Shown here: positions 3,891 through 60,324 of the stretch, one piece after another
Numbering within the stretch: the stretch's first letter is position 1
Layout of the letters: every line of letters starts with the position of its first letter
Assembly: GCA_030765235.1 (NCBI GenBank)
Contig: JAVCCW010000010.1
Span: 30,907-94,906, forward strand
Length of the DNA: 64,000 nt
Reading direction: 5' to 3'
From: Candidatus Gorgyraea atricola
Lineage (GTDB): Bacteria; Omnitrophota; Gorgyraeia; Gorgyraeales; Gorgyraeaceae
The notes under the pieces: generated by a model
Database searches by the model: none
What the model saw: the letters and a program-made list of their open reading frames with translations, nothing else
What the model was told of the DNA's origin: nothing
Position numbers and translations under genes: made by a program

Positions 3891-4418
3891 TTATCGCTTG
3901 TAAAGTCCGATTAGTTCTGCTTGGGTAAGAATGTGGCCTTGCATTGCCTTTTCAAGATCTCTCTTTCTGGCGTTATCTCGCAGATCGATCTCAGTATCCA
4001 ATGCATACAGCTTGAAGAAGTAGCGGTGTACACCTGAGGGTGGACACGGACCTCCGTAATTTTTTCTACCAAAGTCATTCATGGCCTCTTGCCCTGGGAT
4101 GCTGTTCTCTTCTATGCTGGAGACAACTGGTATGTTGTACACGACCCAGTGCACCCATGTGCCCATTGGCGCGTCTGGATCATCTACTATCAATGCAAGC
4201 GTCTTTGCCTCCCCAGGAACACCCTCAATGACTAGCAAAGGGTTGATGTCTTCGCCCTGACAGGTAAATCTCTTTGGTATAAAACTATTATTTTCAAACT
4301 CAGGGCTGGTAATCTTCATGTCTATAGCCTCCTCTGCTCCACAAGGAGCCATAAATATAAAAATGCCTATAAAAAATACGAAAAGAATTTTATTCATTAG
4401 GCGCAGATAGTATGTCAA
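3891..4418 (-). CDS. YbhB/YbcL family Raf-kinase-inhibitor-like (PEBP) protein, secreted
   Basis: 175 aa; signal peptide; PEBP core motifs DPDAP and GGPCPPSGVHRYFFKLYALD. Confidence 0.7.
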   Translation of the reverse strand: MTYYLRLMNKILFVFFIGIFIFMAPCGAEEAIDMKITSPEFENNSFIPKRFTCQGEDINPLLVIEGVPGEAKTLALIVDDPDAPMGTWVHWVVYNIPVVSSIEENSIPGQEAMNDFGRKNYGGPCPPSGVHRYFFKLYALDTEIDLRDNARKRDLEKAMQGHILTQAELIGLYKR

Positions 4419-5670
4419 ATATCGTCTTTATGATAGCTTGAGCTGGCTCTACTTCCTGTTGTCTTTGTTCACTCCCTTCAGATCCTGCTTCTGTTTCCTG
4501 TTGAGGGTCTTCTTTTCTAAAAATAGCCTTTAGTAATTCCTGGCCAGTTGAAACAGCAAGCTTTTCTATTACATAATCAATATCAGGCTTTATCGACATA
4601 TCACCAAGACTACCTCCGACATGAACAGGCATTGTTATCAGGCCTTGTGAATTCTGCAAATAGCTTAGCTCATAAACTGCGTCAACGCATGCCTCTGAAA
4701 GATCTTTAGGTATAAACAGTTCTGAATCCATATCAAGCCTTCCCCTGAGATCCAGATAACCGCTAGCCACTAGATAAAAAACATCTGACTCAATAGTAGT
4801 CTTCTTAAGAAATACCTTCCCATCCTTCATATCAAGATACCCTTTAATAGGCCTAAAAGAGGTATGATTGTCTTTTAAGAGCCCGCTGTAGTGTTCTGGC
4901 AGCTTGTTTTTTAACTTATACACAAGCCCGGGTAATATATTCTCGAGTCTTTCAAAAGCAACCACTAAAAGATTCATGTTCTTAAGCGCTGCCTTGTCCA
5001 GCTTTATACTGGCCCTGGCTGAAAGCGTATCAAGTAGCTTACGCACATCCAATCCTCTTGCTGAAAGATCCGCGTCTATTTCGAGCATACCTTCAAAGCG
5101 CGGAGCGCCTGGCCCAACATCTGGCAGAAACATGGAAACATCCATGCCCTGCAGCATGATCTCCATATCTGAATCCTGACTAGAAGACAAATTCCTTACA
5201 ATACCTTTGATAAAAAAAGCTCCTCCAGCAATAGACCCGGTAAGGCGGTTTATAATCAGGTTTTCTTCTGATATCTTTGCCCTTAATTCAACATCCTTAA
5301 AGCTATCCTTCAAGGGAAATCTATTCCCAAATTGCACATCAAGGACCTTGATAAACAGCCTATCTATCTGCAGCTTCCTCTTGATAAGCGGCAATATCCT
5401 TATGCGCGCCTCTATAGACACTGCCTCCATCATCGCATTAGACCAGGTCTTTTCTCTATCCTTTACAGAAATCTCATCTACCATAAGCGCCAGGCCTGGA
5501 AAAAAACTCAATGACACATCGTCTATCCTGACATCTTTATCTATCATCTCTTCTATTTTTTCTACTAAGATTCCTTTGTATTCATTAGGGTCAAATGTCA
5601 ATAGATACACTAAAGCGCCCACAACAACAACTATAAAAAGCAATACCACTATTATGAAAAATATCTTCAT
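4390..5670 (-). CDS. AsmA-like / DUF748-type membrane-anchored protein
   Basis: 426 aa; single N-terminal TM helix then long periplasmic domain; composition and layout resemble AsmA family; acidic Glu/Gln-rich tail. Confidence 0.4.
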   Translation of the reverse strand: MKIFFIIVVLLFIVVVVGALVYLLTFDPNEYKGILVEKIEEMIDKDVRIDDVSLSFFPGLALMVDEISVKDREKTWSNAMMEAVSIEARIRILPLIKRKLQIDRLFIKVLDVQFGNRFPLKDSFKDVELRAKISEENLIINRLTGSIAGGAFFIKGIVRNLSSSQDSDMEIMLQGMDVSMFLPDVGPGAPRFEGMLEIDADLSARGLDVRKLLDTLSARASIKLDKAALKNMNLLVVAFERLENILPGLVYKLKNKLPEHYSGLLKDNHTSFRPIKGYLDMKDGKVFLKKTTIESDVFYLVASGYLDLRGRLDMDSELFIPKDLSEACVDAVYELSYLQNSQGLITMPVHVGGSLGDMSIKPDIDYVIEKLAVSTGQELLKAIFRKEDPQQETEAGSEGSEQRQQEVEPAQAIIKTIFDILSAPNE

Positions 5671-6900: not shown

Positions 6901-7698
6901 TTAAAACTTGTATGAAATTCCTACGTTCAATGCCTCTTCATCTATGAACCTGCCTTCGATATTGATCGATAGCTGTTCGCTCTGCGGTGTTGCCTCTATC
7001 TTAGGTGTAATAGTTAAGCCTACAAAACCACCCAGATTCCTATCAGAACCCTTGCCTTTGCTGTCACTATACTGCTGAGGAGCAATAGTGTAGTCACTGC
7101 CAAGCTCTACATCTGAAAACTTTAATCCTACGTAAGGAGCAAAGACACCATTCTTCCACGCAAGTTCAACAGCGCCCTGAATCTCTTCATAATCACTGTT
7201 GGTCACATTTGTTAGTTCCGTAGTCGTGTATACTCTCGAATCTACTGTTACATCGTTAACAGCCAGATCCGTCGTCCTATAGCTTGCATTCGCGCCTATC
7301 TCAAAACCGTTATCCCATCGATAGATTAATGCGCTAGCCCCTACGCCAATGATAGCCTCTGAATCATATTTAACGGTGTGCTTTTCTCCCAAGATCGTAT
7401 AATCCAATTCCATGTCTGATGCTTCACCGATATCAACGTAAAGATTAAATCTGTCAAGCATGCTCAAGCCTATCCTGGCCATCACTGCCTGCATTTCAAA
7501 GTCGCCGCTGTCAACATCTATTCTTCTTTCCTGTACAGCATCATAAACAACTCCAACACTCAAGCCGATATTGTTATCTGCCCATAATTCACCTTCTACC
7601 GCATCTGCCTCTGAGGTAAGGCCAACTGGAGCCGCACATACTGTTGCAGCGAAACCAACAACAAACAAAACAGCTAATAAATATTTTACCATCCTCAT
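6901..7698 (-). CDS. Secreted outer-membrane beta-barrel protein (porin/OmpA-like barrel), C-terminal Phe
   Basis: 265 aa; signal peptide (AATVCA-AP); alternating hydrophobic beta-strand pattern; terminal ...GISYKF outer-membrane sorting signature. Confidence 0.5.
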   Translation of the reverse strand: MRMVKYLLAVLFVVGFAATVCAAPVGLTSEADAVEGELWADNNIGLSVGVVYDAVQERRIDVDSGDFEMQAVMARIGLSMLDRFNLYVDIGEASDMELDYTILGEKHTVKYDSEAIIGVGASALIYRWDNGFEIGANASYRTTDLAVNDVTVDSRVYTTTELTNVTNSDYEEIQGAVELAWKNGVFAPYVGLKFSDVELGSDYTIAPQQYSDSKGKGSDRNLGGFVGLTITPKIEATPQSEQLSINIEGRFIDEEALNVGISYKF

Positions 7699-7872
7699 TA
7701 TTTCCTCCTTGAAGTTAATAGATTACTTTATATATTTAACTTTTTTATTATTAGTTGCTTATTTATAGCTTATCCCATGAAGAATACTATTCCATCCCCC
7801 CTTTCTGTCTTGCATAAGATAATCAACGATAGCAATTATTAATTAAGTAGTAGTTTACACGGTGTTTTTAAA

Positions 7873-9644: not shown

Positions 9645-9702
9645 CCATAACCTCCGCGATCTTGAAAATGGTCTAATTATATGGTATACTTGTATTAGCC
9701 GA

Positions 9703-9790
9703 TAAGGGCAAACCCTAGAGAAATCAGGGGGCGCAAAGCCAACAGGCCTAAGTCCTTTAAACGGATATGGCGGCTGGGTTGCCAAGCGAT
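9703..9790 (+). ncRNA. Candidate c-di-GMP-I (GEMM) riboswitch aptamer, plus strand, no downstream plus-strand gene
   Basis: GGGCAAACC-cuagaGAAAucaggg-GGCGCAAAGCC followed by a hairpin carrying the canonical 11-nt GAAA tetraloop receptor halves CCUAAG ... UAUGG, then GGGUUGCC. This matches GEMM-I architecture (tetraloop hairpin, ACGCAAAGCC junction, receptor hairpin). Confidence 0.5.
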
Positions 9791-34161: not shown

Positions 34162-34171
34162 AGGAGTTAGA

Positions 34172-34226
34172 CCCATCCGACCGCGTAGGTCAGATTTAAA
34201 TCTGACCTACGCGGTCGGATGGGTAG
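34172..34226. repeat. 55-bp perfect palindromic (REP/MITE-like) element, copy 1, intergenic
   Basis: cccatccgaccgcgtaggtcagatttaaatctgacctacgcggtcggatggg; homologous (about 85%) to palindrome at 46129-46184. Confidence 0.7.
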
Positions 34227-35968: not shown

Positions 35969-36044
35969 ATCGCCTATTCTACTATATAACCAATATAGGT
36001 GCAAATATATTATTACATTATTTAAATAATCGCGTTGCTTTTTT

Positions 36045-36312
36045 AAGCTAAATGGAAGGCCTGTTCGCTCAGGTGAAAATTTCCCTCCTCGCTTCGCCCC
36101 GCCCTTTCTACGAAAGGCCGGGGCTTCGCTCGGAAACAGGTCGTCTTTTATTCCGCATTTTGGCGGGACTGAAAAAACTTCACCCACACCATAGGTGTGG
36201 GTGTCGAACAGTTTTCAGCCTTTTGGGCTCATATAATGTGCCAAAGAAACCGCCAAAATGCTACATAAAAGACTAAATTTTCAAATTCGCGCCCAGACCT
36301 TCCATTTAGCTT
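36045..36312 (+). mobile_element. MITE-like element, about 268 bp, family copy 1 (TIR aagctaaatggaaggcctg...; internal hairpins)
   Basis: 23-bp imperfect terminal inverted repeats; shares more than 85% identity with 48841-49096 and, in reverse complement, 50026-50293; contains perfect hairpin cacccacaccataggtgtgggtg; no credible ORF. Confidence 0.6.
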
Positions 36313-36369
36313 AAAAAAGAAAGTTAACTTTACATTTAAAGCAAGACCTTAAAGTGTAAACTTAAGTAT

Positions 36370-37752
36370 TTATATGTCATTGTTATGGAGTGCTGTAATC
36401 TTTTCAACTAGCCCTTGTTCTGGCTTTAGAATCTTAATCCCGTCCTCTGCCGCAGAACCTGTCTGGTCATTAGAAGCTATATTTTGTGAAACTGGAAAAC
36501 TAATTACAACATCTGCCCCTTCCTGATTATTACCCTTGATATCCATGAACACGCCATAGTCTCCAAGTTTATAAATAATTGTAGCTCCTATACCACTACC
36601 TCGTTGCTCTTTTTCAGAATATACACCATTATCACTGAATATAACTTCTACGGCTTTTTCATCCTTTTGTTGTGTGATTTCATTTGTCTTTATGATTATA
36701 ACTCCTTTTTTTATTGATTTTTGTAATAGTCGCTCGATTATAGCTTGTCTTGCATCGTTGATTAAATTTGCCCATACTTGATACATAAAAAGAGAATTTG
36801 TATAGACATGTGGTATATTTTCATCTAGTTCCAACTTTATCTGTGCATACGTATCATTCTTGTATAATTCTACTAATTTCATCAGACTTTCATTGATATC
36901 TACTAGAGTAGTCTCTTTACTTTCTCTTATATATTTTCCTATCTCCTGGAAGATTATAAAATTAATTAATGGGGTATTTATTCTTTCAACATTTTCTCTA
37001 AAAGAGGTAATTTTTTGATTATTCTTGTATTTGTCAAGAAAGGTTTCTGCTTGAGACATAGTATCTAATAGCTCACTATAAAAAGCTATAAAATTATCTA
37101 TTAGAGCTACGATAACTTTAGGATTTAACGATTTTAACTTTTCTAATTTCCTAAAAAGCATATTCCAGTGACTATATGGTTCCTCGTAAGAATCTAATGC
37201 CTTTGACAGCTGGCTAGCTCTTCGAATGTCAACATCCTCTTTCTTCTCAACCAATTCTACTTCTAAAAATTTTCTAATTTCATACGTGTAATTCGTTATC
37301 TGTCCTAAAGTATGCGCGAAATAATAATTCAGAGTTGCTCTTATGGTAGGAAAGGCATCGCTTTTAACTTCGGAATAATCTAAAGAATCCAGCTCAGCAG
37401 AAGCCAAGTTATACAGCATGCCCACTTCTTGCAGCAACTCTCCTGGGCCTGCATCCTCTCTAATAAAATCTGAACTAAGATTAAAATGCTTCAAGACTTT
37501 TGTTGTTAAATACTTTCTAAGTTCTTTATAGTCAATTTGAAGCCACTCTTCCTCCTGATAGGTTTTAAGCTTAGCTATTATCTCTTTTGCCTCTTTTTTT
37601 ATTTTATCTCGGGCAATCTTATTTGCGACTTTGACTTCGTTATCTTTATCGTTTCTTATAGGAACTCTCAGGCAATACGCCTCCTGACACGCCCCTACCC
37701 CTATTAGTATCAATATTAAAGCTATAATGCATTGTTTTCCAATCTTCATCAT
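36370..37752 (-). CDS. Signal-peptide/anchor protein with C-terminal histidine-kinase-like ATPase (HATPase_c) domain; no obvious DHp H-box
   Basis: 460 aa; N-terminal hydrophobic segment then CLRVP motif; C-terminal N-box (ANLINDARQA), G1 (DNGVY) and G2 (GSGIGATI) boxes. Confidence 0.5.
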   Translation of the reverse strand: MMKIGKQCIIALILILIGVGACQEAYCLRVPIRNDKDNEVKVANKIARDKIKKEAKEIIAKLKTYQEEEWLQIDYKELRKYLTTKVLKHFNLSSDFIREDAGPGELLQEVGMLYNLASAELDSLDYSEVKSDAFPTIRATLNYYFAHTLGQITNYTYEIRKFLEVELVEKKEDVDIRRASQLSKALDSYEEPYSHWNMLFRKLEKLKSLNPKVIVALIDNFIAFYSELLDTMSQAETFLDKYKNNQKITSFRENVERINTPLINFIIFQEIGKYIRESKETTLVDINESLMKLVELYKNDTYAQIKLELDENIPHVYTNSLFMYQVWANLINDARQAIIERLLQKSIKKGVIIIKTNEITQQKDEKAVEVIFSDNGVYSEKEQRGSGIGATIIYKLGDYGVFMDIKGNNQEGADVVISFPVSQNIASNDQTGSAAEDGIKILKPEQGLVEKITALHNNDI

Positions 37753-37914
37753 AATCCACCCAAAAAAATCTGCTTCACTGTGCTGCTTTTATGCACAGAT
37801 TTGCAGGAATTTTATATTAATTAGATTATTATAGCATATAAATAGCACCCATGCAAGGCTTTTATGGGATAGTGTATAATATTTGAAGAGTTGCGTTACG
37901 GTTTATTGGGTCTT

Positions 37915-38094
37915 ATGCACCGCCCAGACCACTGGCTCTCGGGGCATACGCCGTGCCGAGCGGGCACGGTGCTAAAGTAGACAAAACAGTCACTGACTGT
38001 TTTGTCTACTTTAGCGAGCGAGGCACGGGGCTGAGCAAAATTCTCACGCTGGGAGAATTTTGCGTCCCCGAGAGCCAGTGGTCTGGGTGGTGCA
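37915..38094. repeat. GC-rich element bounded by 29-bp near-perfect inverted repeats, with three nested internal hairpins (MITE-like or structured RNA)
   Basis: tgcaccgcccagaccactggctctcgggg ... ccccgagagccagtggtctgggtggtgca; internal perfect 21-bp hairpin ctaaagtagacaaaacagtca/tgactgttttgtctactttag; local GC far above window average. Confidence 0.4.
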
Positions 38095-38126
38095 AAGCTG
38101 TCACGTAACATTGAAAATATTACATT

Positions 38127-38226
38127 TATGGGATAAGTGGGGCGCGGGGTGTTCTGTGAGTGGGAGGATCCACACCGGGCGGAGGGGCCCACAAATAGAA
38201 TACCCCGCGCCCCACGATACGGGATT
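38127..38226. repeat. Second GC-rich inverted-repeat element (14-bp arms gtggggcgcggggt / accccgcgccccac) immediately upstream of GT2 gene
   Basis: Perfect 14-bp inverted repeat flanking a 60-nt GC-rich interior with further small hairpins. Confidence 0.3.
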
Positions 38227-43610: not shown

Positions 43611-45118
43611 CAGGCCTCCGTCAATCTTATTATATCCTCAACATGAGAAAGCGCCTCTTGTTCGCCCTTTTTAATAAAATCATTCGCAAGATGAAAATCA
43701 GTCGAGCTGGCAGATGAAAGTACAGGTCGCAGGGCAATGTTTGCTTTTTTGCAGCTATTCTCTCCGAGCACATATTCCATGGACTGCATGGTGGCCATGA
43801 TAACGTCAAAGATGTTGGGTGTAAAAATTTTTCTTAAACGTTTCATTATAGATAAGCCTATCCTTACATTAAAAGGGGCTGTAAGCATAAGATTTTTCTC
43901 TTCGCTATCCCTCTTTTTTAAAAGCATATTTTTTTCATATATATCTCTGGGGCCTGGCAAGACATTCACGGCTATTATCTTTTTCACACCCTGCTTTAAT
44001 AATATATCTACAGGCACAGGATCTGAAACCCCGCCATCAATGATCACTCTTTCCTTTTCGACCTTGGGTTTAAATATGCCTGGCACTGCTATGCTCATAT
44101 AAACCGCGTCCGCAAGCAAACCCTTCTCTATCACAAGTGTCTCTCTGTTTGCCAGGTCGTATACCATTATCTTAACAGGTATTTCCAGATCTTCAAATGT
44201 TTTTTCCTCAAAAATCTTCTTCAGAAACCTCTTCAGTCTTTTTCCAGCCAGGATGCCTGATATAGGTATTGTAAAGTCCAGCAGTCTCATGATCTTTAGC
44301 TTGCTTCTTAGTTTTCTTGCTATACTCTCTATCCTGCCTGCAGAAAAACCAAGGCCGTGCATACCTGCTATAAGCGCGCCTATGCTTGAACCTGACACAA
44401 TGTCTATAGTTATGTGCCTATCCTCCAGCATCTTCAAAACTCCTATATGCGCCAGGCCAAATGCAGAGCCGCTTCCCAGGGCAAGACCCAGTAACTTGCC
44501 TGACTCTTTCTTTGCAATACGCAAGATCGCCTTTGAATAAAGGGCGTCCTTGGATTTTAAAACAAGTGGTATCCCGCTTGAGTCTAATGCTGCATCCATG
44601 ATACCTGGCTCAGGCACAATGGCTGAGATATTTCTTTTAACTAACCACGCCATTTCCTCTTTTGAAAATCTATCGAATATATTCAGCCTGTTTACAATAA
44701 TGCTTGTCTTGGAGTGAATAGGCTCGAGGTCCTTCTCGAGCAAAACTTCTAAAAATCCATGGCTGGCTCCAAGATCGTCTTTAGTTGAATCCACAAAAAA
44801 ATGCACGACATCAGAACATGTAAACATCCTATACAGTGACTCGTCTGCCTCGCCTGAGGCATTAATTACAGTATAAAGATAATCTTTTTTTACGTTCTCG
44901 ATCTGGCGCTCTTTAATGCGGCCTTGCCTTAGGCGCTCTATTTTCACATCACTGCTTATTTTGTATTCCAGAGTACTTAAGACATCAATAAATAAAACTT
45001 TGCCTTTTGTAATCATGGCAAGCGCTGCTGCAAGGTTTATTGCATACCATGTCTTTGCCTCTCTGTGCGTAGTGTTATATACTGCTATCACCTTGCCGTT
45101 ATCGCTCATGCCTCCCAT
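43610..45118 (-). CDS. Patatin-like phospholipase with N-terminal degenerate ParA/MinD-like (P-loop-less) domain
   Basis: 502 aa; N-terminus VIAVYNTTHREAKTWYAINLAAALA aligns to ParA KGGVGKTT...NLAAALA with the P-loop destroyed; patatin oxyanion GSGSAFG and GSSIG (GxSxG) nucleophile; DGG near C-terminus. Confidence 0.65.
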   Translation of the reverse strand: MGGMSDNGKVIAVYNTTHREAKTWYAINLAAALAMITKGKVLFIDVLSTLEYKISSDVKIERLRQGRIKERQIENVKKDYLYTVINASGEADESLYRMFTCSDVVHFFVDSTKDDLGASHGFLEVLLEKDLEPIHSKTSIIVNRLNIFDRFSKEEMAWLVKRNISAIVPEPGIMDAALDSSGIPLVLKSKDALYSKAILRIAKKESGKLLGLALGSGSAFGLAHIGVLKMLEDRHITIDIVSGSSIGALIAGMHGLGFSAGRIESIARKLRSKLKIMRLLDFTIPISGILAGKRLKRFLKKIFEEKTFEDLEIPVKIMVYDLANRETLVIEKGLLADAVYMSIAVPGIFKPKVEKERVIIDGGVSDPVPVDILLKQGVKKIIAVNVLPGPRDIYEKNMLLKKRDSEEKNLMLTAPFNVRIGLSIMKRLRKIFTPNIFDVIMATMQSMEYVLGENSCKKANIALRPVLSSASSTDFHLANDFIKKGEQEALSHVEDIIRLTEA

Positions 45119-46776
45119 ATCCTCCTGGATCTTGGAAACCCCACACCCAACAATAATGCCAGATCAATATCTTCGCGGCTACCTACAATCCCCTCTTTTA
45201 AACACAATTCAGCCTGCCTTCTTATGGGGCATAAAAGTCGATTTGCTATGTCTTTTCGTCCGGATGACTGCTGCGTCTTTATTTTATCTCCAAGACCTTG
45301 CTCGAGTATCTCGCTGGCCTTATAGGCCACATCATGGCCGATCTCTTCTAAAAGGCGCAGGGGACCCACTGGCATACCAAAATCCAACATTGCATTCTCA
45401 ATATCCTCTGCATTAAAACCATTTTTCAACATAAAAAGGGCCTCATTTAGATATGGCAGGATCATGCGGTTTACAAGAAATCCGGGACTATCCTTGACCA
45501 CAAGGGGTATCTTTTTGAAGCTGCGCAAAAAGCCAATAGTTGAGCTCAGGACCTCTTTGCTCGTGAATCTCGTGGGAATAACCTCTACCAGCTTCATCTT
45601 ATACGCTGGATTAAAAAAATGCATGCCAATAAAACGCTCGGCATTCCTCAATGATCTTGACAATTCCTCAATAGAAATACACGAGGTATTTGTAGCTATT
45701 ATGCAATCCTTGCGTAACGACTTCTCTATCTGACTAAATAATATCTTTTTCTTTAGCGCATCTTCTATTATAGATTCTATCACTATATCAGTATCCTTGC
45801 ATACACCATTGCCAAATCTTATGTTTTTAATGCTTGGCCTCATGCCCCTGGAAATCGCATCTTTGCATATATTTTTTATATACGGTCTTGCCTTTTTTAA
45901 AACATTCTTATTGGCATCTGTTATATCGACTGGCAATTCTGTCTTTAAGCTTATTAGATAAGCAATATCCCTGCCCATTGTGCCGGCCCCTATAACTGAA
46001 CATCGCTTTAGGCGCGGGCTTAACAACTCAGGACCTTTATATTTATCAACCAACAAATATGAGGATAGCGCATTCTGTGCTGGCGGTTGAAAGATCTTAT
46101 CAATCACCTCTTGTCTCTCGACAGCCTCTACCTGTCCAACCGCGTAGGTTGGATTTAAATCCAACCTACGCGGTTGGACAGGTAGCCTTGCAAGCTTCTC
46201 ATAATCGCATTTTCTTGATTCTGGAATAATCTTGTCTATTATTCCCAGCTCTTTCGCCTCTTTTGCAAAAATCAACTCCCCTTTATCCATAAGAGAATCT
46301 GCTCTCTTTGATCCTATCTTTTCTTTTAATCTATGAGGACCGCCAAAACCAGGCGAGATGCCTAATTTTACCTCTGGGAGCCCGATCTTCACTCTCTTGT
46401 TTGTAGTAGCAAGTATATGGTCACAAGAGAGCGCCAGTTCCATGCCGCCACCGACACAAGCACCATCTACTATAGTAAAAGTCGGCATCTTTAAGTCAGC
46501 TATTTTGCTAAATAGCCTTTGCCCATTTTTACAAAAACTAACCACCTCTTTTTCTGTACGCATGGCAGCAAGCTCTTTAATATCTGCGCCCGCGATAAAG
46601 ACATTCTGCTTCTTGCTCGTGAAAAACAATGCGCGAAGTTCGACTTTATTACTTGTAACGCTATCTATGATACTCTCAAGCTGCTTGAAATTTTCTTTGG
46701 ATAACAGGTTTACCTCTGAATCAGGATCATTAAACTCTATAACACCCATATCATCTTTTTTGTAATAGGAGATCAT
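45106..46776 (-). CDS. FadB-like bifunctional enoyl-CoA hydratase / 3-hydroxyacyl-CoA dehydrogenase, with 18-aa in-frame palindrome-encoded insert in the interdomain linker
   Basis: 556 aa; crotonase fold N-terminus (FIAGADIKEL, GGGMELAL), 3HCDH NAD-binding VIGAGTMGRDIA; residues PVQPRRLDLNPTYAVGQV are the direct translation of the 46129-46184 palindrome. Confidence 0.75.
   Translation of the reverse strand: MISYYKKDDMGVIEFNDPDSEVNLLSKENFKQLESIIDSVTSNKVELRALFFTSKKQNVFIAGADIKELAAMRTEKEVVSFCKNGQRLFSKIADLKMPTFTIVDGACVGGGMELALSCDHILATTNKRVKIGLPEVKLGISPGFGGPHRLKEKIGSKRADSLMDKGELIFAKEAKELGIIDKIIPESRKCDYEKLARLPVQPRRLDLNPTYAVGQVEAVERQEVIDKIFQPPAQNALSSYLLVDKYKGPELLSPRLKRCSVIGAGTMGRDIAYLISLKTELPVDITDANKNVLKKARPYIKNICKDAISRGMRPSIKNIRFGNGVCKDTDIVIESIIEDALKKKILFSQIEKSLRKDCIIATNTSCISIEELSRSLRNAERFIGMHFFNPAYKMKLVEVIPTRFTSKEVLSSTIGFLRSFKKIPLVVKDSPGFLVNRMILPYLNEALFMLKNGFNAEDIENAMLDFGMPVGPLRLLEEIGHDVAYKASEILEQGLGDKIKTQQSSGRKDIANRLLCPIRRQAELCLKEGIVGSREDIDLALLLGVGFPRSRRIWEA
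46129..46184. repeat. 56-bp perfect palindromic (REP/MITE-like) element, copy 2, inside FadB-like CDS in frame
   Basis: tacctgtccaaccgcgtaggttggatttaaatccaacctacgcggttggacaggta; same family as 34172-34226 (shared core ccgcgtaggt-N-gatttaaatc-N-acctacgcgg). Confidence 0.7.
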
Positions 46777-47975: not shown

Positions 47976-48776
47976 TCAATGTAGCTCTACCGGTTTGTTC
48001 ATATAATCCGTATAATCGATCTCTCCTGTCAGCTCCTGTTTGACCATGCGTATACGATCAGCAATATGCGGGTGAGAGCGATAACTTCTATGCGGCCTTA
48101 TTGGTGCTTCTCTGTTCACCTCTTGCATCTTTTTTAAAAAACTCAGCATTGCCATGGGATCAAAGCCTGCGGCCTTTAGATATTTGATCGCGATCCTGTC
48201 TGCAAGCGCCTCATCTTCTCGAGAGTACTCCATGACCAGCTGGCCAAAGGCTGCATTGATCCTGCCATAGTCCTGAGCGCCCTGGCCTGAAAAAACCATG
48301 AGTAGCTGCAGTATATTAAATCCCACGCCGCCTTGCAATCTTTTCATGGAGTGTCTTGCTACGACATGCGCCACTTCATGAGCCATTACTGACGCCAGCT
48401 CATCATCTGTCTCGACCTTTTCCATAAGTCCTCTAAAAATAAATATATACCCGCCTGGCAATGCAAACGCATTGACATCATCATCATCTATCACCCTAAA
48501 CGTATAATTTACCTCCTGCCTATCAGAAACAGCAGCAATCCTCCTGCCAAGTTCTCTTAGGCGCTCTGCCTCCAGCGGATCCGGGTCTAATTCAATATCC
48601 GGATTCTTCTCAATACTATTCGCGATACTCCTACCCATGTTTATTTCACTCTCAGTGCTCACAAACATAATATCATCCCTACCCGTAACAGCATTATACT
48701 CACGCTCCACGCACCCAGCCAATAAACACACACATAGCACCAATATATACTTCATATAGACATAAGTGTATGCCAT
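47976..48776 (-). CDS. M48-family Zn-metalloprotease lipoprotein (BepA/HtpX-like)
   Basis: 266 aa; lipobox LLAGC; HEVAHVVARH (HExxH) motif plus downstream Glu. Confidence 0.75.
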   Translation of the reverse strand: MAYTYVYMKYILVLCVCLLAGCVEREYNAVTGRDDIMFVSTESEINMGRSIANSIEKNPDIELDPDPLEAERLRELGRRIAAVSDRQEVNYTFRVIDDDDVNAFALPGGYIFIFRGLMEKVETDDELASVMAHEVAHVVARHSMKRLQGGVGFNILQLLMVFSGQGAQDYGRINAAFGQLVMEYSREDEALADRIAIKYLKAAGFDPMAMLSFLKKMQEVNREAPIRPHRSYRSHPHIADRIRMVKQELTGEIDYTDYMNKPVELH

Positions 48777-48840
48777 AAAGGCCCAATCGTCAAATATATT
48801 TTTATTGAAGTTTTATTATGCCTAGATAGGTCGAGTTGTA

Positions 48841-49096
48841 AAGCTAAAAGGAGGCCTGTTCGCTCAGGGGAAAATTTCCCTCCTCGCCCCGCCCTTTCTA
48901 CGAAAGGGCGGGACTCGGAAACAGGTCGCCTTTCATTTTGCATTTTGGTGGGGCCGAAAAAACTTCACCCACACCATAGGTGTGGGTGTCGAACAGTTTT
49001 CGGCCTTTTTGTCTCATAGAATGTGACAAAATAAACCACCAAAATGCAAAATGAAAGACTAAATTTTCAATTCGCGAACAGGCCTCCTTTTAGCTT
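48841..49096 (+). mobile_element. MITE-like element, family copy 2 (perfect 23-bp TIR aagctaaaaggaggcctgttcgc)
   Basis: Same family as 36045-36312; perfect terminal inverted repeats; internal hairpins ccccgccctttc-uacg-gaaagggcgggg and cacccacaccataggtgtgggtg. Confidence 0.65.
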
Positions 49097-49125
49097 TACA
49101 AAGTAAGCGTACCTAAATAGGGTGT

Positions 49126-50022
49126 CTATAAAAAACTCAGTGCTTTTTTTGATTTAGTATTTAATATTTTGCCAATAAAGCCTCTTGCTCCTGTCATATC
49201 TTTTACTATAGAAGCATAATTAAATTCACTTATGAAAGGAGCTGTATTTATTGCCGCATTACGCAGTCTCTTTGTTTCCTCTTTTGATGGACGGGTTTCC
49301 TTCCAAATATTCTTAATGATTCCTGCAAGATGGGGTGTAAAGTTGCTTCTTATAAAATCTCCCACTTCTTTTTTACTGCGAATTATTGCTGTAATATACA
49401 TTATAACCTCATCTTCATCTAAGCCAAAGAACTCCATTAACTGATAAATCTGGCCAAATGAAGAAGGATCAGATCTAGCTAATTTTTCCCATCTTAAATG
49501 CATTCTTTCATGCCACAGTAAAGACATGACTATTTCTTCTAATGTCCTGTTCCAACTACTAGAATTAACCTCTACTTTTATCCAATCAGGATTTAACACT
49601 TTAGAAGCTTTAAAAAAACATCCATCCCCCTTTTTATATAGCTCTAACAATTTAGATGCCCCTGGCAACCTCAAGGCAGACGCTTTGTTAAGGAGTGACA
49701 ATATCTCTTTATTTTCAACTGAATCTTCTGAGGCTGTTTTTTCTGAAATTGCTAGTGCAGTATTGCTTTCGCTTCCTAAGTTTAATAGCGAGAAAAGCTG
49801 GTCCGTAACCACATAGGTCTTGAAAGGAGAATCTGTACGAACTTGGTGTATTAACTTCTCCTCCGACGGAATACTTGGCGAGTCATTTTTATCATCCTGC
49901 TCGAAATTCAGAGGAACTCTTAGGCAATCTGCGTCGATCGAATACGCTGGATTTGGGCACAAAAATGCTCCTATTAATGTAAATAGCAAGGCTATATGAT
50001 TTACCTTTCTCATATAGATCAT
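49126..50022 (-). CDS. Secreted hypothetical protein (signal peptide + CLRVP motif), bracketed by inverted MITE copies
   Basis: 298 aa; N-terminal signal peptide; shares post-signal CLRVP motif with 36370-37752 product; no recognised domain. Confidence 0.4.
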   Translation of the reverse strand: MIYMRKVNHIALLFTLIGAFLCPNPAYSIDADCLRVPLNFEQDDKNDSPSIPSEEKLIHQVRTDSPFKTYVVTDQLFSLLNLGSESNTALAISEKTASEDSVENKEILSLLNKASALRLPGASKLLELYKKGDGCFFKASKVLNPDWIKVEVNSSSWNRTLEEIVMSLLWHERMHLRWEKLARSDPSSFGQIYQLMEFFGLDEDEVIMYITAIIRSKKEVGDFIRSNFTPHLAGIIKNIWKETRPSKEETKRLRNAAINTAPFISEFNYASIVKDMTGARGFIGKILNTKSKKALSFL

Positions 50023-50025
50023 CTT

Positions 50026-50293
50026 AGCCCAAACAAGGAGGCCTGGGAGCGAATTGAAAATTTAGCCTTTTATGTAGCATTTTGGCGGTTTCTATGGCTC
50101 ATTATATGAGCCCAAAAGGCTGAAAACTGTCCGACACCCACACCTATGGTGTGGGTGGAGTTTTTTCAGTCCCGCCAAAATGCGGAATAAAAGGCGACCT
50201 GTTTCCGAGCCCCGTCCTTTTGGCTAAAAGCCAAAAGGACGGGGCGAGGAGGGAAATTTTCCCCTGAGCTCCCAGGCCTTCTTGTTTGGGCGA
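50026..50293 (-). mobile_element. MITE-like element, family copy 3, inverted orientation (TIR cccaaacaag[ag]aggcctgggagc)
   Basis: Reverse complement aligns along its length to copies 1 and 2; one internal hairpin is remodelled with compensatory changes (ccccgtccttttggc-uuuua-gccaaaaggacgggg). Confidence 0.6.
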
Positions 50294-50302
50294 CACAGGT
50301 AA

Positions 50303-52381
50303 TTATCTAAAAATCAATAATAAAGTTCCTAAGAGGAAGAATAATACCGCGGTGGATAGTTTTACCAGGCCTAGGTGTTTCTGCATGAATTTGGAGAAGG
50401 TGGTTGAGGTGGCGCCGAAGAGGCCTAGGATGAATACGGCTATTAGGGGTAGGATAAAGGCTAGGTTGTAGAGTACGAGGTATGCGAATGCGGATATGGC
50501 CTTGCCAGGCATCCTCATTACAAACGCTATAGTGGGGAGATAGACCTGGCCAGTGCAAAAGGATTCAAGGATAGACACCATAAATCCCGCGGTAAACGCG
50601 ACCCATATTATCTTGGCGATATTGTGCTTCTCGCCCCTGAAATCAGAGCCAATGACCGAATGGATCCTCTTCTTAATAGATTCCGGAAGTTTCAATATGA
50701 TACTGCTAGTATCCTTTGTCTTCTTGAATCTAAAATAATCCACAAGGCTCAGGATTCCGAGCAAAATAGCAAGCCCGCCTATCAGAATATTTATAGCAAG
50801 CATTACATAACTAAATCCACTCAATATCTTTAAAAACCTGAAGATCCCCAGGCCAATAAGAAGATACGCGATAAATACAGCCACAGTAAAAGACGCGCCC
50901 GCGAAAAACATCTCACGCCTACGATAACCAACAAACGCAAGAAACGATATAAAGAACACTATAGTCGTAAAAGCGCAGGGATTAACGCCATCGAGCAGTC
51001 CTGCCGCCATAACAGTATATACACTAAAGGATTCAAACTTGGACAGGATAAGTGACTCTGTAGGCGGGTGATATTCAGCGGCCTCGAGAGCTAATTCCTT
51101 GTTTTTTTTTAGAATAGCTGGATCCTCTTCCAGGGCATCGTGTATAACCTCATCCAGCCTGGAAAAGATCTCTTCCTTGCCCATTAAAACATATCCTGAG
51201 ACGATGACCTCAGGCACATAACCGCCTTCTATCCCGTATAGATTCTCGAGCTTAGTCATGTACTCGAAATTTTTCGTAGTGCCTATGTCAAGGTGCTCCA
51301 GCGTGATAGCATCGCCATATTTCTGCTTGATCTCAGGCAATAGTTCCTTTTCTATATCCATGCATGCCTTGCACCCTGCTGTGTAAAAAACAAGGACCTT
51401 TAATGGCCTATCGAAAAGCAATGACCCTACCGCCACAGAGTCCATTTCCTCTATCTTTTGTGACTTCGGCAGCCTTGAGGAAATATCAGCTACTACATTA
51501 ATACCGTCGTATTCTTCCCCTAGCGGCGTAGATTCCCATGTATATGAATGGACTTTACCCTTGTACAGTTTTAGATCTAACCTTCCTATCTTTCTTGAAT
51601 GATAAGAAGTCGGCATGACCAGCGTATCATTTATCTTCATGGGCTCCTGGCTCTGAGCATCCCAGTGCCCGCTAAGTATTACATCTATTCCCTCAACACT
51701 CTTTGCGAGATCTATTGAATATGGCAGGCCCAGATGGCCAAGCACGATAATTACATCTGAGTTAGCCCTTAACTCAGGGATATATTTGGAAATAGTTTTT
51801 TTATTCGACAGTATGTCCAGTCTCTTAGAATTAAGAACGTAACGCTCATTTACAAGCCCGATAATACCCACCCTTAAACCATTCTTCATAGTCTTTATTA
51901 TATATGGCTTTGAAAAGGGCTCTTCTGTATTTTTATCCACTATATTCGCTGATATCAGAGGAAATGACAGGCCGTCCTCTTGCTGTCTTAAGAAAGATTC
52001 TCCTAGAACAAGGTCGCTCTCGCCAATATTCATTACATCATATTTCATGAGCTTCATTGCCTCAAATGAAATAGACGCGTTGCGCGCTACATCTTCTTTC
52101 TTTAGATCCGCTGTAAGCAGAGACACGACATCCCCTACATCTAATAGCAGGACATCATCTACCTTTTTCCTTACCTCAGAGAGATATTCATATCTTCTAT
52201 TAAGGCCGCCAAAATCATCCTTAGGACAATGGCAATTCTCCAGCTCTCCGCGCATATCTCCTGTAAAGACAATAGTGAGTTTCTGGGATCTTGCAAGGCA
52301 GGGCTGCGCGATCAGGATGGCGAATATTAGCGCTAAAATTGTTTTTATCACCTTTTTATGCATTATATATAAGTATACCAC
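50303..52381 (-). CDS. Three-module protein: periplasmic metallophosphoesterase/5'-nucleotidase-like domain + thioredoxin-like CxxC domain + C-terminal CcdA/DsbD-type transmembrane domain
   Basis: 692 aa; signal peptide; calcineurin-like fold lacking the canonical GDxHG His (FTGDMRGE) but with CHCP; Trx-like FYTAGCKACMDIE; C-terminal 6-8 TM helices with DsbD-type GLLDGVNPCAF motif. Confidence 0.5.
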   Translation of the reverse strand: MVYLYIMHKKVIKTILALIFAILIAQPCLARSQKLTIVFTGDMRGELENCHCPKDDFGGLNRRYEYLSEVRKKVDDVLLLDVGDVVSLLTADLKKEDVARNASISFEAMKLMKYDVMNIGESDLVLGESFLRQQEDGLSFPLISANIVDKNTEEPFSKPYIIKTMKNGLRVGIIGLVNERYVLNSKRLDILSNKKTISKYIPELRANSDVIIVLGHLGLPYSIDLAKSVEGIDVILSGHWDAQSQEPMKINDTLVMPTSYHSRKIGRLDLKLYKGKVHSYTWESTPLGEEYDGINVVADISSRLPKSQKIEEMDSVAVGSLLFDRPLKVLVFYTAGCKACMDIEKELLPEIKQKYGDAITLEHLDIGTTKNFEYMTKLENLYGIEGGYVPEVIVSGYVLMGKEEIFSRLDEVIHDALEEDPAILKKNKELALEAAEYHPPTESLILSKFESFSVYTVMAAGLLDGVNPCAFTTIVFFISFLAFVGYRRREMFFAGASFTVAVFIAYLLIGLGIFRFLKILSGFSYVMLAINILIGGLAILLGILSLVDYFRFKKTKDTSSIILKLPESIKKRIHSVIGSDFRGEKHNIAKIIWVAFTAGFMVSILESFCTGQVYLPTIAFVMRMPGKAISAFAYLVLYNLAFILPLIAVFILGLFGATSTTFSKFMQKHLGLVKLSTAVLFFLLGTLLLIFR

Positions 52382-52445: not shown

Positions 52446-54995
52446 TTACATTACTTCAATTATAGGAACTGGAGTTGCATTTACTGTGGCCACCAGCGTA
52501 TCAACTGCAGTATTGCACTCAGTACCTGAATCATCCTTAACTGTTAGAACCACTTTATAAAGGCCTATGCCCTTGTAAGCATGCCTTACCTTTGTCCCTT
52601 GCGCAGTTTGGCCATCACCAAAATCCCATGTATACGTAAGGTTATCATTATCTGGATCAAATGAATCTGACGCATCAAATTCAACCTCGTCATTAACGCA
52701 GATCAAAAGATCCCCGCCAGCCTCTGCTACAGGAGGTGTGTTTACGTTAAGGTAATGCACCTTTGTCGAGCCTGAGCAATCTGAATTTTTACCATCATCA
52801 ACAAACAGCGTTGCTTTATAGAGCCCACCCTTTGCATAATTATGCTTTACGTTAGCTCCGCTTTCAGTAGTACCATCGCCAAAATCCCAAACATAATCCA
52901 GCTTATCTCCGTCAGGATCGTTCGATAACGCGCCGTCAAACTTTATCCCCTCGTCAACACAGGCAATGTCCTTAGAGCTTATGTCTGCGGTGGGATTGGA
53001 GTTGACATTCACTGAAATGGCATCTGTCGCGCTTGAACACTCTGCGCCAGCACCATCATCTACCTTAAGAGTAGCATTATAAAGGCCTCCTTTTGCATAC
53101 TGATGAGAGACCTTTTTTCCTCTGGCTGTTTTTCCATCGCCAAAATCCCATAGATAGCTAAGAGTATCCCCGTCATTGTCAAACGACAAAGAGGCATCAA
53201 ACTCTGCCTTCTCTGTCAGGCATATGTTTATATCGTTTCCTGCGTTAGCCATTGGCGCCCTGTTTAAGTTAACAAGCTTTGTCGCAGTTGACTTATTGCA
53301 ATCTGTATAGGTATTGTCGGTAACAAGGAGTTTAGTCGCGTACTCTCCGCCCCTTTCATACCTATGAGTGACTACCTTGCCTTCCTCTGTCTCGCCATCA
53401 CCGAAATCCCAGACATAAGTCAGATTATCATTATCCGCGTCCTTTGACTTTGACGCGTCAAAAGTGACTTCCAGGGGATCATTAGGATCTTTCTTGCACA
53501 ACATTATATCTTTACCCGCGTCAGCGATAGGTGCGGTATTTACTGCTACATTTAATCTATCCACGCCTGTATCGCACATGGTCCCTGAATCATCGACTAC
53601 AGTAAGCGCGACTTGATAATCTCCGCCTTTAGCGTATTTATGAGAGACCTTTACGCCTTCAGCTGTCTCGCCATCGCCAAAATTCCATTTGTATGTCAGA
53701 TTATCTTCGGGACTATCTGTTGACTGTGTGCCATCGAATAGTATCTCTGTATCAACACAGGTCACATTAGGGCCGTCTGCTATAGCGCATGGCGGCTGAT
53801 TGACTTTTACGACCTGCTGAGTCGAAGCTGTATTACAATCCACCTCTGAGGCATCTGTAACTGTCAGCTTGACAAGATATTTTCCAGCATCCTTATAGGT
53901 ATGCATGTTCTTTAACTGTGTGCTGGTAGTACCATCACCAAAATCCCAGAAATACGCAAGGGTCTGATCATCTGGATCGTAAGACTTTGAACCATCAAAT
54001 GTAAATGTATTACATGAAAGCTTTGACTCCATCCATGGCTCTTCCTTTGCCTTAGCCTTAGTAGGCCGCTCAACAAAGACCCTCTTAGGTCCTCCTGCGC
54101 CAGGTGTAAAAAATACAGGAACTGCCGCGCCATCGCCTGTTGTCAGATACATCGCCATGTTTGCATTGGGCTGCCTGTCCTTTGTTATTTCATATACCCA
54201 TCTCTTGCCAGCATCAGATGGCAGAACATCTACTTCAGTATTTGCCCATATGCCGGTCCCAGAACCTTTTATACTGTAAGAACGAGATGCGCTTACGAGC
54301 TCTATATCTCCTCCGGTCGCGTCCAGATCATAATTGTACTCGATTATCTTTGCCGCGTCCGCGGGTATTGCGGGATAAAGCGCCATCTTTGTTCCGCGCT
54401 TCTCTGATAGTCTTAATGAAAGCGCGTAGCTGAATGCCTCCATTGTATCCGGTGATATCTCAAGGGCAAAGACATTGTTGTCATCCCCTGACAGCCCTTC
54501 AGCAACTATCTTAAAATATCTGAAATTTCCTACTTTCTCACCCTTGTCCGCTTCTATAGGAGAAAAGTGATAAAACTTTTTGTCATAGGATTCATCTTCT
54601 CCGAACTCCTGGGAATCCAGAAGCGTACCTTCAAGAAAATCTACGATCTTTGCCTCGCTTATCCCTGCTATGGATGAATACGCTTTCTTTCCGCCAAAAA
54701 TAGAAAAGCGGGTCGAGGTATTCCATTTTCCACTCTTTTCATCAATATAATCACCGACATCAGGATCATAGATGGATATTTCTATGTTACCAGTGTAATT
54801 CTCAGGAACTCTCAAGAATACGACTTGGGGCGCCTTTTTTGCGCCATAACTTTTTCTTCCATCCTCGCCAAAGGTATATAAATACCTGAGCTTACTCTCT
54901 TCTGGTGGTATTCTATAGCAAAGAGCATCCTTTACTATAGCAAAGCTTAAAAACAACACTGATGCGATTATGATATGCAATGTCTTCCTGCACAT
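52446..54995 (-). CDS. Secreted protein with at least seven tandem PKD domains
   Basis: 849 aa; signal peptide; repeated [YT]xWDFGDG[TQE]T blocks at about 85-95 aa spacing. Confidence 0.75.
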   Translation of the reverse strand: MCRKTLHIIIASVLFLSFAIVKDALCYRIPPEESKLRYLYTFGEDGRKSYGAKKAPQVVFLRVPENYTGNIEISIYDPDVGDYIDEKSGKWNTSTRFSIFGGKKAYSSIAGISEAKIVDFLEGTLLDSQEFGEDESYDKKFYHFSPIEADKGEKVGNFRYFKIVAEGLSGDDNNVFALEISPDTMEAFSYALSLRLSEKRGTKMALYPAIPADAAKIIEYNYDLDATGGDIELVSASRSYSIKGSGTGIWANTEVDVLPSDAGKRWVYEITKDRQPNANMAMYLTTGDGAAVPVFFTPGAGGPKRVFVERPTKAKAKEEPWMESKLSCNTFTFDGSKSYDPDDQTLAYFWDFGDGTTSTQLKNMHTYKDAGKYLVKLTVTDASEVDCNTASTQQVVKVNQPPCAIADGPNVTCVDTEILFDGTQSTDSPEDNLTYKWNFGDGETAEGVKVSHKYAKGGDYQVALTVVDDSGTMCDTGVDRLNVAVNTAPIADAGKDIMLCKKDPNDPLEVTFDASKSKDADNDNLTYVWDFGDGETEEGKVVTHRYERGGEYATKLLVTDNTYTDCNKSTATKLVNLNRAPMANAGNDINICLTEKAEFDASLSFDNDGDTLSYLWDFGDGKTARGKKVSHQYAKGGLYNATLKVDDGAGAECSSATDAISVNVNSNPTADISSKDIACVDEGIKFDGALSNDPDGDKLDYVWDFGDGTTESGANVKHNYAKGGLYKATLFVDDGKNSDCSGSTKVHYLNVNTPPVAEAGGDLLICVNDEVEFDASDSFDPDNDNLTYTWDFGDGQTAQGTKVRHAYKGIGLYKVVLTVKDDSGTECNTAVDTLVATVNATPVPIIEVM

Positions 54996-60085: not shown

Positions 60086-60162
60086 TGGCGTCCCTAAGAG
60101 GATTCGAACCTCTGGCCCCAAGTTTAGGAAACTTGTGCTCTATCCATCTGAGCTATAGGGAC
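60086..60162 (-). tRNA. tRNA-Arg (anticodon CCU), CCA encoded
   Basis: Manual fold: acceptor GUCCCUA/UAGGGAC 7/7 bp, D-arm GCUC-AGAUGGAUA-GAGC, anticodon arm CAAGU-UUCCUAA-ACUUG, T-arm AGAGG-UUCGAAU-CCUCU, discriminator G + CCA. Confidence 0.85.
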
Positions 60163-60295
60163 ACATTAGTACCAGCACAGGAATGCAACTTGCCTGCCCC
60201 GTTCCAAATTCTTAAAGGTCATCAAGTAATCTATAATAATTGGCCTCTACAAATTTACAAATAACTAATAACTTACCGCTCAGAATTTGGAATGG

Positions 60296-60324
60296 GGTGC
60301 TCTATCCATCTGAGCTACAGGGAC
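60296..60324 (-). other. Duplicated 5' fragment of tRNA-Arg (27/27 nt identical through the D-arm, then diverges), separated from the intact gene by a 16-bp inverted repeat pair
   Basis: Minus strand reads GUCCCUGUAGCUCAGAUGGAUAGAGCACC...; inverted repeats cccgttccaaattct (60197-60212) and agaatttggaatgggg (60281-60296). Confidence 0.5.

Follow-up and report, generated by a model that had tools for sequence, protein, structure and literature searches.

The SPRITE, BOX and RUP elements of pneumococcus include a terminator-like repeat and are found bunched, with the families inserting into one another (PMC10969869). The repeat described here, which we named element A, is similar to SPRITE in being small, non-coding and intergenic, with a hairpin and U-tract resembling those of Rho-independent terminators and no known transposase. 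Like SPRITE, it also clusters with other palindromic repeats (families B, D and E and REP sequences), and E is found nested. It differs in having no sequence relationship to SPRITE, in coming from another phylum, in being a much longer nested palindrome with a closing stem of 24-31 bp, and in carrying its terminator-like hairpin at the apex, where it reads both ways.

Correia/NEMIS of Neisseria and QMITE2 of Coxiella share with A a size of 100-300 bp, a non-coding and intergenic character, terminal inverted repeats of 23-29 bp, transcripts predicted to form very stable stem-loops, a possible TA-type flank, and a potential to affect the transcription of neighbouring genes. Correia elements have TA direct repeats and conserved termini, and QMITE2 has conserved termini and direct repeats of 7-9 bp, whereas A has variable termini, no consistent duplication and a conserved centre. 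The REPIN/RAYT systems consist of mobile DNA that forms hairpins, keeps its arms complementary by means of compensated changes and leaves no target duplication, a description that A would also fit, and in a related single-cell genome a RAYT with GTAG-type REPs is located 1.8 kb from an A copy. However, A is 2-3 times longer than a REPIN and is branched, its ends lack the GTAG/CGTC head (GTAG occurs only in the loop of hairpin H1, on the minus strand), and the repeat that flanks the RAYT is not A. Long-stem and bidirectional intrinsic terminators resemble the apex of A, a GC-rich hairpin of 10 bp between an A-tract and a T-tract, but an ordinary terminator is neither a repeated unit of 260 bp nor enclosed in two more layers of long-range stems, and its sequence is not shared between loci. 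Because it has neither a target duplication nor conserved termini, A falls outside the MITEs in the strict sense, and because it has no GTAG head and no RAYT association it falls outside the REPINs. A is a new family of bacterial interspersed palindromic repeat, outside any named family.

Three complete copies are present in the 64-kb window (the whole stretch of DNA that was analysed) from Candidatus Gorgyraea atricola, and a nhmmer profile search of the window returned these three only:

36038-36319, plus strand: copy 1 (c1), complete element of 282 nt, subfamily I
48836-49101, plus strand: copy 2 (c2), complete element of 266 nt, subfamily II
50027-50291, minus strand: copy 3 (c3), complete element of 265 nt in inverted orientation, subfamily I

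Core identity is 96% between c1 and c3, 89% between c1 and c2 and 86% between c2 and c3, with a mean column identity of 86% for the three-copy alignment when the flanks are included. The preliminary description had reported three copies at these places with more than 85% identity, and the range of 86-96% bears this out, the full palindromes being slightly longer than it gave. Across all copies, including those from other genomes described below, the element measures 239-326 bp. The copies have no ORF in common, and three of them (c3 and the copies L010 and L002a) contain no ORF of at least 40 aa, in agreement with the earlier view that the element is non-coding. The two ORFs at 36052-36276 and 48752-48943, which lie inside elements or start in them, are spurious as had been suspected. 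The N-terminal extension of the 34229 gene into c1 is likewise an artefact, its true start being the ATG at 35968 according to the orthologues at loci L002 and L013.

Element A is a nested, branched palindrome in which the closing stem encloses two more long-range stems and three hairpins. Both strands fold, with minimum free energies (MFE) of -127 to -159 kcal/mol for the strands tested; relative to dinucleotide shuffles, none of which folded as well, the z-scores are -12 to -18. The parts of the three copies are as follows:

36038-36068, plus strand: c1 closing stem, 5' arm, pairing with 36288-36319
36097-36123, plus strand: c1 hairpin H1, a variable module with the direct repeat CTTCG on both flanks
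36288-36319, plus strand: c1 closing stem, 3' arm
48836-48863, plus strand: c2 closing stem P1, 5' arm, pairing perfectly with 49073-49101 over 27-28 bp
GAAAATTT with AAATTTTC: c2 short A/T stem, next inside P1
48887-48912, plus strand: c2 branch hairpin H1
48925-49059, plus strand: c2 inner domain, in which P2 encloses P3, H2 and H3
48925-48951 with 49036-49059, plus strand: c2 long-range stem P2
GGCCGAAAA with TTTTCGGCC: c2 stem P3
48966-48988: c2 apex hairpin H2, CACCCACACC-ATA-GGTGTGGGTG
49006-49031, plus strand: c2 second branch hairpin H3
49073-49101, plus strand: c2 closing stem, 3' arm
50027-50051, minus strand: c3 closing stem, 3' arm
50210-50244, minus strand: c3 hairpin H1, extended variant CCCCGTCCTTTTGGC..GCCAAAAGGACGGGG, also found in L010
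50268-50291, minus strand: c3 closing stem, 5' arm, with the outer sequence GCCCAAACAAGAAGG, unlike that of c1 and c2 and matched in the other arm

A 23-nt terminal inverted repeat had been described as perfect in c2; it is, and its perfect pairing in that copy extends to 27-28 bp. Both internal perfect hairpins of that account, H1 (CCCCGCCCTTTC..GAAAGGGCGGGG) and H2, are present, and to them we add the stems P2 and P3 and the third hairpin, H3.

The helices of A are maintained by compensated changes. In a 12-copy alignment from which the outer stem was left out, 90% of the cells pair and 23 pairs carry double-sided changes, compared with 11.9 +/- 2.1 in shuffled alignments (0 of 500 reach 23) and 4-9 in controls with slid partners. 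Structure-preserving covariation, first proposed from a single hairpin of c3, is therefore real, and it is strong elsewhere in the element. The c3 hairpin itself had been thought to be replaced by a different, equally perfect stem; the compensated change stands (one pair, C-G to T-A), but there is no wholesale replacement, the variant differing mainly by a distal extension of 8-9 nt. The same H1 variant recurs in L010.

MAFFT misaligns the outer stems, and for these a separate analysis took the GGCC/CAGG core as its anchor. The outer closing stem varies between copies in both sequence and length (AAGCTAAATGGAAGG, AAAGCTAAAAGGAGG, GCCCAAACAAGAAGG, ACCCCAAAAGGAGG, AAGCCAAAAGTAGAGG and others), yet the two arms of any one copy match almost perfectly as complements, down to indels that are present in both. 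It continues for 15-23 bp past the GGCC anchor, nearly perfect in every copy, and the complementarity of the arms often extends a few bases beyond the point where similarity between copies ends. The best-conserved part is the apex, with some 45 nt that do not vary within a subfamily; conservation declines from there towards the ends, the terminal 10-15 bp being the least conserved part of A.

The apex, in which the A-tract, the GC-rich 10-bp hairpin and the T-tract follow one another, is terminator-like on both strands:

36181-36203, minus strand: c1 apex hairpin H2, followed by AAGTTTTTTC, terminator-like in the sense of the flanking genes
48966-48988, minus strand: c2 apex hairpin H2, with its U-tract on the minus strand, in the sense of the flanking genes
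50135-50157, plus strand: c3 apex hairpin H2, with the U-tract GAGTTTTTTC, antisense to the flanking genes

The U-tract of the strong strand begins 3 nt beyond the stem; in c2, TTTTT follows an extended P3/H2 hairpin whose end on the plus strand is at 49005. The three H2 sites rank first, second and third among the terminator-like sites in their 20-kb scans. The same scans contain clear gene-end terminators at 40524-40498 and 6878-6844, indicating that the organism uses canonical intrinsic terminators. Copies c1 and c2 turn the stronger terminator orientation towards the upstream gene and are followed by predicted promoters at 36005-35976 and 48793-48765, respectively. From its match to the consensus pattern, we predict that the H2 apex acts as a bidirectional intrinsic terminator.

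All A copies are intergenic, and they occur in both orientations, several beginning 0-25 bp past a stop codon. Copy c1 lies 50 bp downstream of the stop of the ORF at 36370-37752 (minus strand) and upstream of the predicted promoter and true start (35968) of a PMT_2/ArnT-like gene. Copy c2 lies 25 bp past the stop of the ORF at 49126-50022 (minus strand) and upstream of the predicted promoter of an M48 peptidase gene. Copy c3 is fitted between two genes, beginning 11 nt past the stop codon of the ORF at 50303-52381 (minus strand) and ending 4 bp ahead of the ATG of the ORF at 49126-50022. The neighbouring ORFs of 298 and 460 aa contain no Pfam domains; they share a short N-terminal signal/CLRVP motif only. 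The M48 peptidase and the 298-aa ORF match proteins of the Candidatus Gorgyraea atricola MAG with 100% identity.

The family extends well beyond the window. The preliminary description allowed that these three copies might be the only ones; we found 13 more at 9 further loci, which brings the total to 16 copies and 12 loci. Scans for exact matches to the H2 core recovered copies from a related Omnitrophota single-cell genome, AM-312-B13 (loci L002 and L003), and a few metagenome contigs (L004, L005 and L010-L013) only. A protein-database search with a spurious ORF of A returned four clusters only, through which further copies were reached (L028-L035), among them a subfamily with a compensated H2 variant, CCCGACACC/GGTGTCGGG, that is invisible to exact-motif scans. 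Among the other core-motif matches, L006 and L008 were dismissed as chance or coding matches, and L007, L009 and L014 belong to a different GC-rich palindromic repeat. Viral contigs (core-motif scan) and plasmids and phages (BLAST) gave no match to A. Short-read contigs break inside A, as expected of a repeat. No match to A was found in Rfam (Rfam 15) at the gathering threshold, and E-values of up to 10 added only miRNA-precursor-type or generic long-hairpin noise far below threshold; literature searches found no published description of such repeats in the Omnitrophota. The gathering-threshold Rfam scan of the window detected a c-di-GMP-I element and a tRNA only, both away from the copies.

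The occurrence of A differs between relatives at orthologous sites. In the window, c3, the 298-aa ORF and c2 are located between a 690-aa gene and the M48 peptidase gene. At loci L015-L018 (76% M48 identity) the 690-aa gene is followed by a 74-bp spacer and M48, so that the c2/c3 site is empty, and the metagenomes of these loci carry A copies elsewhere. Other elements occupy the site in three further relatives: L019 and L022 have family F with nested E, plus D, and L024 (GCA_018818505.1), whose flanking genes have 86-92% nucleotide identity to those of the window, has family B with nested E at the c3 position and other elements at the c2 position. L024 also carries a counterpart of the 298-aa ORF in the same place, with a 92%-identical 5' end and only the first 49 residues in common. 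Subfamilies of A, of which H2 defines three, cut across loci. Identity is 98% between c1 and L011, which lie at different loci in different genomes, and only 72.5% between c1 and L002b, the copy at the c1 locus of the related single-cell genome and a member of another subfamily.

Element A is one of a larger set of palindromic families, at least five others (B, D, E, F and GTAG-type REPs), which cluster together, nest in one another and take one another's place at the same sites between genes. A block of about 500 bp comprising A, a hairpin and D is inverted between L013 and L002, with collinear flanks. E has inserted into copy L002a, duplicating CGGG, and into the B element of L024, duplicating CCCG, both clear cases of nested transposition. 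Replacement of elements is seen between genomes that are about 90% identical. Among the relatives compared there is no clean filled/empty pair at high identity, and no insertion event is directly seen. The comparisons show turnover at intergenic sites within a community of palindromic mobile repeats; A's own mode of movement is not revealed by them. Perfect REPIN-like palindromes are also found in the window.

The ends of A read (TT)AAGCTAAAAGG..., also given as (TT)AAGCTAAAAGGAAGG. At about half of the loci (c1/L002b, L013, L004/L032, L028 and L033) TTAA or TA borders GCT...AGC; as TTAA is palindromic, it is indistinguishable from A's own end. The copies c3, L005, L010 and L011 are without TA or TTAA on both sides and have termini beginning GCCC.., ACCCC.., CAAGCC.. 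and GACAGCT... A target-site duplication was sought, but no consistent one was found among the loci, nor was there a direct repeat outside the palindromes. A cognate transposase, and likewise a longer element with the ends of A, was sought in the window and in the approximately 200 kb of fetched loci, and neither was found. The only transposase nearby is the RAYT of the related single-cell genome (Y1_Tnp, E 2.8e-14), located at 3525-4145 of L002, 1.8 kb from copy L002a. This gene is flanked by perfect 27-nt inverted GTAG-type repeats, GTAGGGTGTCCCCAAATGGGACGTCCC, which are unrelated to A, and its role as the cognate enzyme of A is unsupported because its flanking REP differs from A. A REP of the same GTAG type adjoins copy L010. 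The window contains no RAYT. The earlier label MITE-like thus fits A in part: the element is small and non-coding, has inverted repeats and is dispersed at 12 loci, but it has no consistent duplication, its termini are variable and a cognate transposase was not found.

We consider A best read as an interspersed palindromic repeat, non-coding and non-autonomous, that belongs to the Gorgyraea lineage of the Omnitrophota. Of the two possibilities raised originally, a mobile DNA palindrome or a structured small RNA, our results favour mobile DNA, in the broad sense only, and weaken the RNA reading. On balance, A is probably mobile palindromic DNA of a MITE-, SPRITE- or REPIN-like kind, broadly understood, that carries a bidirectional terminator. 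A structured non-coding RNA family, whether a small RNA gene or a cis-acting UTR element, in which RNA folding is the property under selection, seems unlikely to us. Such a family would account for the strong covariation in every helix, for a core that is conserved while peripheral hairpins vary and inserted hairpins are tolerated, and for copies that are 96-98% identical at different loci and in different genomes when coding genes are 86-92% identical. The strands also differ in a manner suggestive of RNA, with 12 of the 12 copies tested folding 1.5-20 kcal/mol better on the same strand and 39 versus 20 G.U pairs in the MFE folds; the alignment itself, however, has no significant wobble asymmetry (27 A.C versus 22 G.T mismatches, many shared by descent). 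Further difficulties are the lack of an Rfam match, the lack of a promoter common to the copies, since homology stops at the palindrome, and an orientation of 4:4 relative to the upstream co-directional gene. Terminator-like signals in the middle of the element and in both directions would truncate a transcript before its 3' arms, unrelated elements are found at the same intergenic site in close relatives, and the paired indels appear to fit templated DNA copying better than selection at the RNA level. We give an equally low probability to a classical cut-and-paste MITE that depends for its movement on a trans-acting DDE transposase bound to its terminal inverted repeats, either IS630/Tc1-like and targeting TA or of a kind targeting TTAA. 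The copies that lack TA or TTAA on both sides and have different termini are at odds with it, as is a pattern of conservation, least at the termini and greatest at the centre, that is the reverse of that expected of a transposase-bound MITE, and neither a transposase gene near the copies in the window nor a longer element with these ends was found. In its favour are terminal inverted repeats of 23-31 bp and a consensus end of (C)TTAA followed by GCTAAAAGGAAGG, bordered left and right by TTAA or TA at c1/L002b, L013, L004/L032, L028 and L033, a palindromic TTAA not being separable from the element's own end. Sequence past the consensus end is also often symmetric, as with palindromic target preferences, and IS-family transposases are common in the Omnitrophota (bioRxiv 10.64898/2026.06.07.730766).

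Alternatively, the copies might not be mobile at all and instead be paralogous bidirectional terminators or insulators that spread by recombination and gene conversion and were kept for cis-regulation. The apex that is terminator-like in both directions, the position of copies at gene ends, often 0-25 bp from a stop codon, and the subfamilies that are common to genomes yet differ at the same locus, which fits conversion, all agree with this explanation; it nonetheless leaves the arrival at new loci unexplained, including a c2/c3 site that is empty in L015-L018, and termination does not need the outer 100+ bp of nested stems. The presence beside A of REP/RAYT and of E, a demonstrably inserting element that duplicates 4 bp, suggests that the setting is one of mobile DNA, and we regard a non-mobile origin as improbable, somewhat more so than either an RNA family or a classical MITE. 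It is hardly credible that the ORF at 49126-50022 arrived in a composite transposon with c3 and c2 as its inverted ends, even if the window has an inverted A, the 298-aa ORF and another A where L015-L018 have 74 bp. We rejected this reading because L024 carries the inserted gene at the same place, flanked by other elements and not by A. Moreover, c2 and c3 share 86% identity and represent different subfamilies, the c3-ORF-c2 unit is not bordered by a direct repeat, and the ORF has no homologue besides the L024-type gene and none flanked by A elsewhere. A bolder proposal, to which we attach little weight, is that A, B, D and F are all fold-back mobile DNA, in which the structure and not the sequence of the termini matters, or that the A fold is a functional RNA family that is new and restricted to the Gorgyraeia. 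In the fold-back case, a single-stranded hairpin form of A, recognized at its invariant apex (for example by an enzyme of the HUH/RAYT type), would be what is copied or moved, with the arms regenerated by self-templating. Such self-templating would give rise to paired indels, to ends that are specific to each copy yet perfectly complementary, and to complementarity that reaches into the unique flanks.

Returning to A as mobile palindromic DNA with a bidirectional terminator, we suggest that the element is propagated or maintained as DNA via a folded hairpin state, because it is complementarity, and not a terminal sequence, that is required. One possible route would be single-strand, hairpin-dependent mobilization, as in REPIN/RAYT or IS200/IS605-type systems; templated correction between the arms could equally be responsible. 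The nearly invariant apex, functioning as a terminator, would cause each insertion to punctuate transcription between neighbouring genes, and c1 and c2, each of which has a gene end on one side and the predicted promoter of the following gene on the other, may be examples of such punctuation.

For annotation, A is a source of spurious ORFs, false N-terminal extensions and broken short-read assemblies of these uncultivated bacteria. It opens no new category of system, its unusual feature being a fixed centre with free complementary ends, and this combination of a fixed apex with variable complementary ends offers a natural test of hairpin-dependent DNA maintenance against RNA-level selection. 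The intergenic regions of the Gorgyraea lineage emerge as an ecosystem of nested palindromic repeats whose turnover is faster than gene divergence, and these repeats may supply ready-made bidirectional terminators beside rapidly changing genes for secreted proteins.

Besides A, the non-coding nested palindromic repeat, there is another family of structured palindromic repeats, B, which is ~185 nt long, is closed by arms of 29 nt (TGCACCGCCCAGACCACTGGCTCTCGGGG/CCCCGAGAGCCAGTGGTCTGGGTGGTGCA), carries a 19-bp perfect hairpin inside and is often found beside copies of A. At the site in GCA_018818505.1 (L024) orthologous to that of the third window copy of A (c3), B is found in its place. The elements named alongside A, in the window and at loci in relatives or metagenomes (L numbers), are as follows:

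Window 37913-38097, L004 1888-2074, L010 1115-1285, L024 4527-4643 and L033 ~1400-1565: copies of B
Window 38137-38215: C, an intergenic inverted repeat, GTGGGGCGCGGGGTG...CACCCCGCGCCCCAC
Window 36320-36368: hp, an intergenic AT-rich hairpin, TTTACATTTAAAG..CTTTAAAGTGTAAA
L002 ~1445-1545, L019 ~5490-5590 and L024 ~4655-4700: E, a small element
Window 34171-34224 (54 nt) and 46128-46185 (58 nt): two related perfect palindromes containing GTAG/CTAC
L002 3525-4145: a RAYT-type Y1 transposase (Pfam Y1_Tnp, E 2.8e-14)

The hairpin hp goes with A's 3' end in the first window copy (c1), in the copy that the single-cell genome AM-312-B13 has at that locus (L002b), and in L013 and L012. A block of ~500 bp comprising A, hp and a further palindromic family, D, is inverted in L013 (~2290-2800) relative to the single-cell genome L002 (~7250-7760), and the flanks on both sides of the block are collinear between these two related genomes. 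Element E (43-100 nt, CCCCGTTCCAAATTC...GAATTTGGAACGGGG) occurs nested within A (the copy L002a), B (L024) and another palindromic element, F (L019, L022). Because a 4-bp duplication (CGGG/CCCG) is present at E in two of its nested cases, E is in those two a genuine nested MITE insertion.

The two GTAG/CTAC-containing palindromes of the window look like REPINs. The longer lies in frame within the linker of an enoyl-CoA hydratase/3-hydroxyacyl-CoA dehydrogenase gene (45106-46776), a linker that has five more residues than that of the L016 orthologue. The L002 RAYT is bracketed by perfect inverted 27-nt GTAG-REPs (3446-3472 and 4146-4172), and GAGAGAGTAGGGACGTCCC repeats are clustered ahead of it; a further copy of this REP, at L010 1294-1320, adjoins a copy of A.

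An unrelated GC-rich palindromic repeat in other metagenomes (L007 ~1700-1900, L009 ~2150-2350, L014 ~1500-1700) happens to have the same 10-bp stem at its apex (CACCCACACC..GGTGTGGGTG). IS21-family transposase/IstB pairs (L029 929-5455, L030 316-2491) are inserted ~0.8 kb upstream of a copy of A that is also present in L028, with no sign of a link between these pairs and A. Near tRNA-Arg (60086-60162), at 60196-60324, lies a sequence of ~100 nt that is similar to the 3' portion of the tRNA region, matching 60124-60162 at 85% identity over 39 nt. Sequence resembling it (75% identity) lies beside a copy of A in L005 and upstream of a 692-aa gene in L024; this could be a tRNA fragment or a further repeat. 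The window also contains a c-di-GMP-I riboswitch (9697-9786, +; Rfam RF01051, 68.8 bits) and a PKD-domain protein gene (52446-54995, -) with six tandem repeat units of 261-276 nt each.

Two ORFs that each adjoin a window copy of A, 36370-37752 (-; 460 aa) and 49126-50022 (-; 298 aa), contain no Pfam domains. The corresponding locus lacks the 460-aa ORF in the single-cell genome, in L013 and in L004. For the 298-aa ORF the only homologue found was the same-position gene in L024, with which it shares the first 49 residues (signal peptide and CLRVP), the remainder being unrelated. Both ORFs have the look of rapidly changing genes for secreted proteins, located where repeats turn over.
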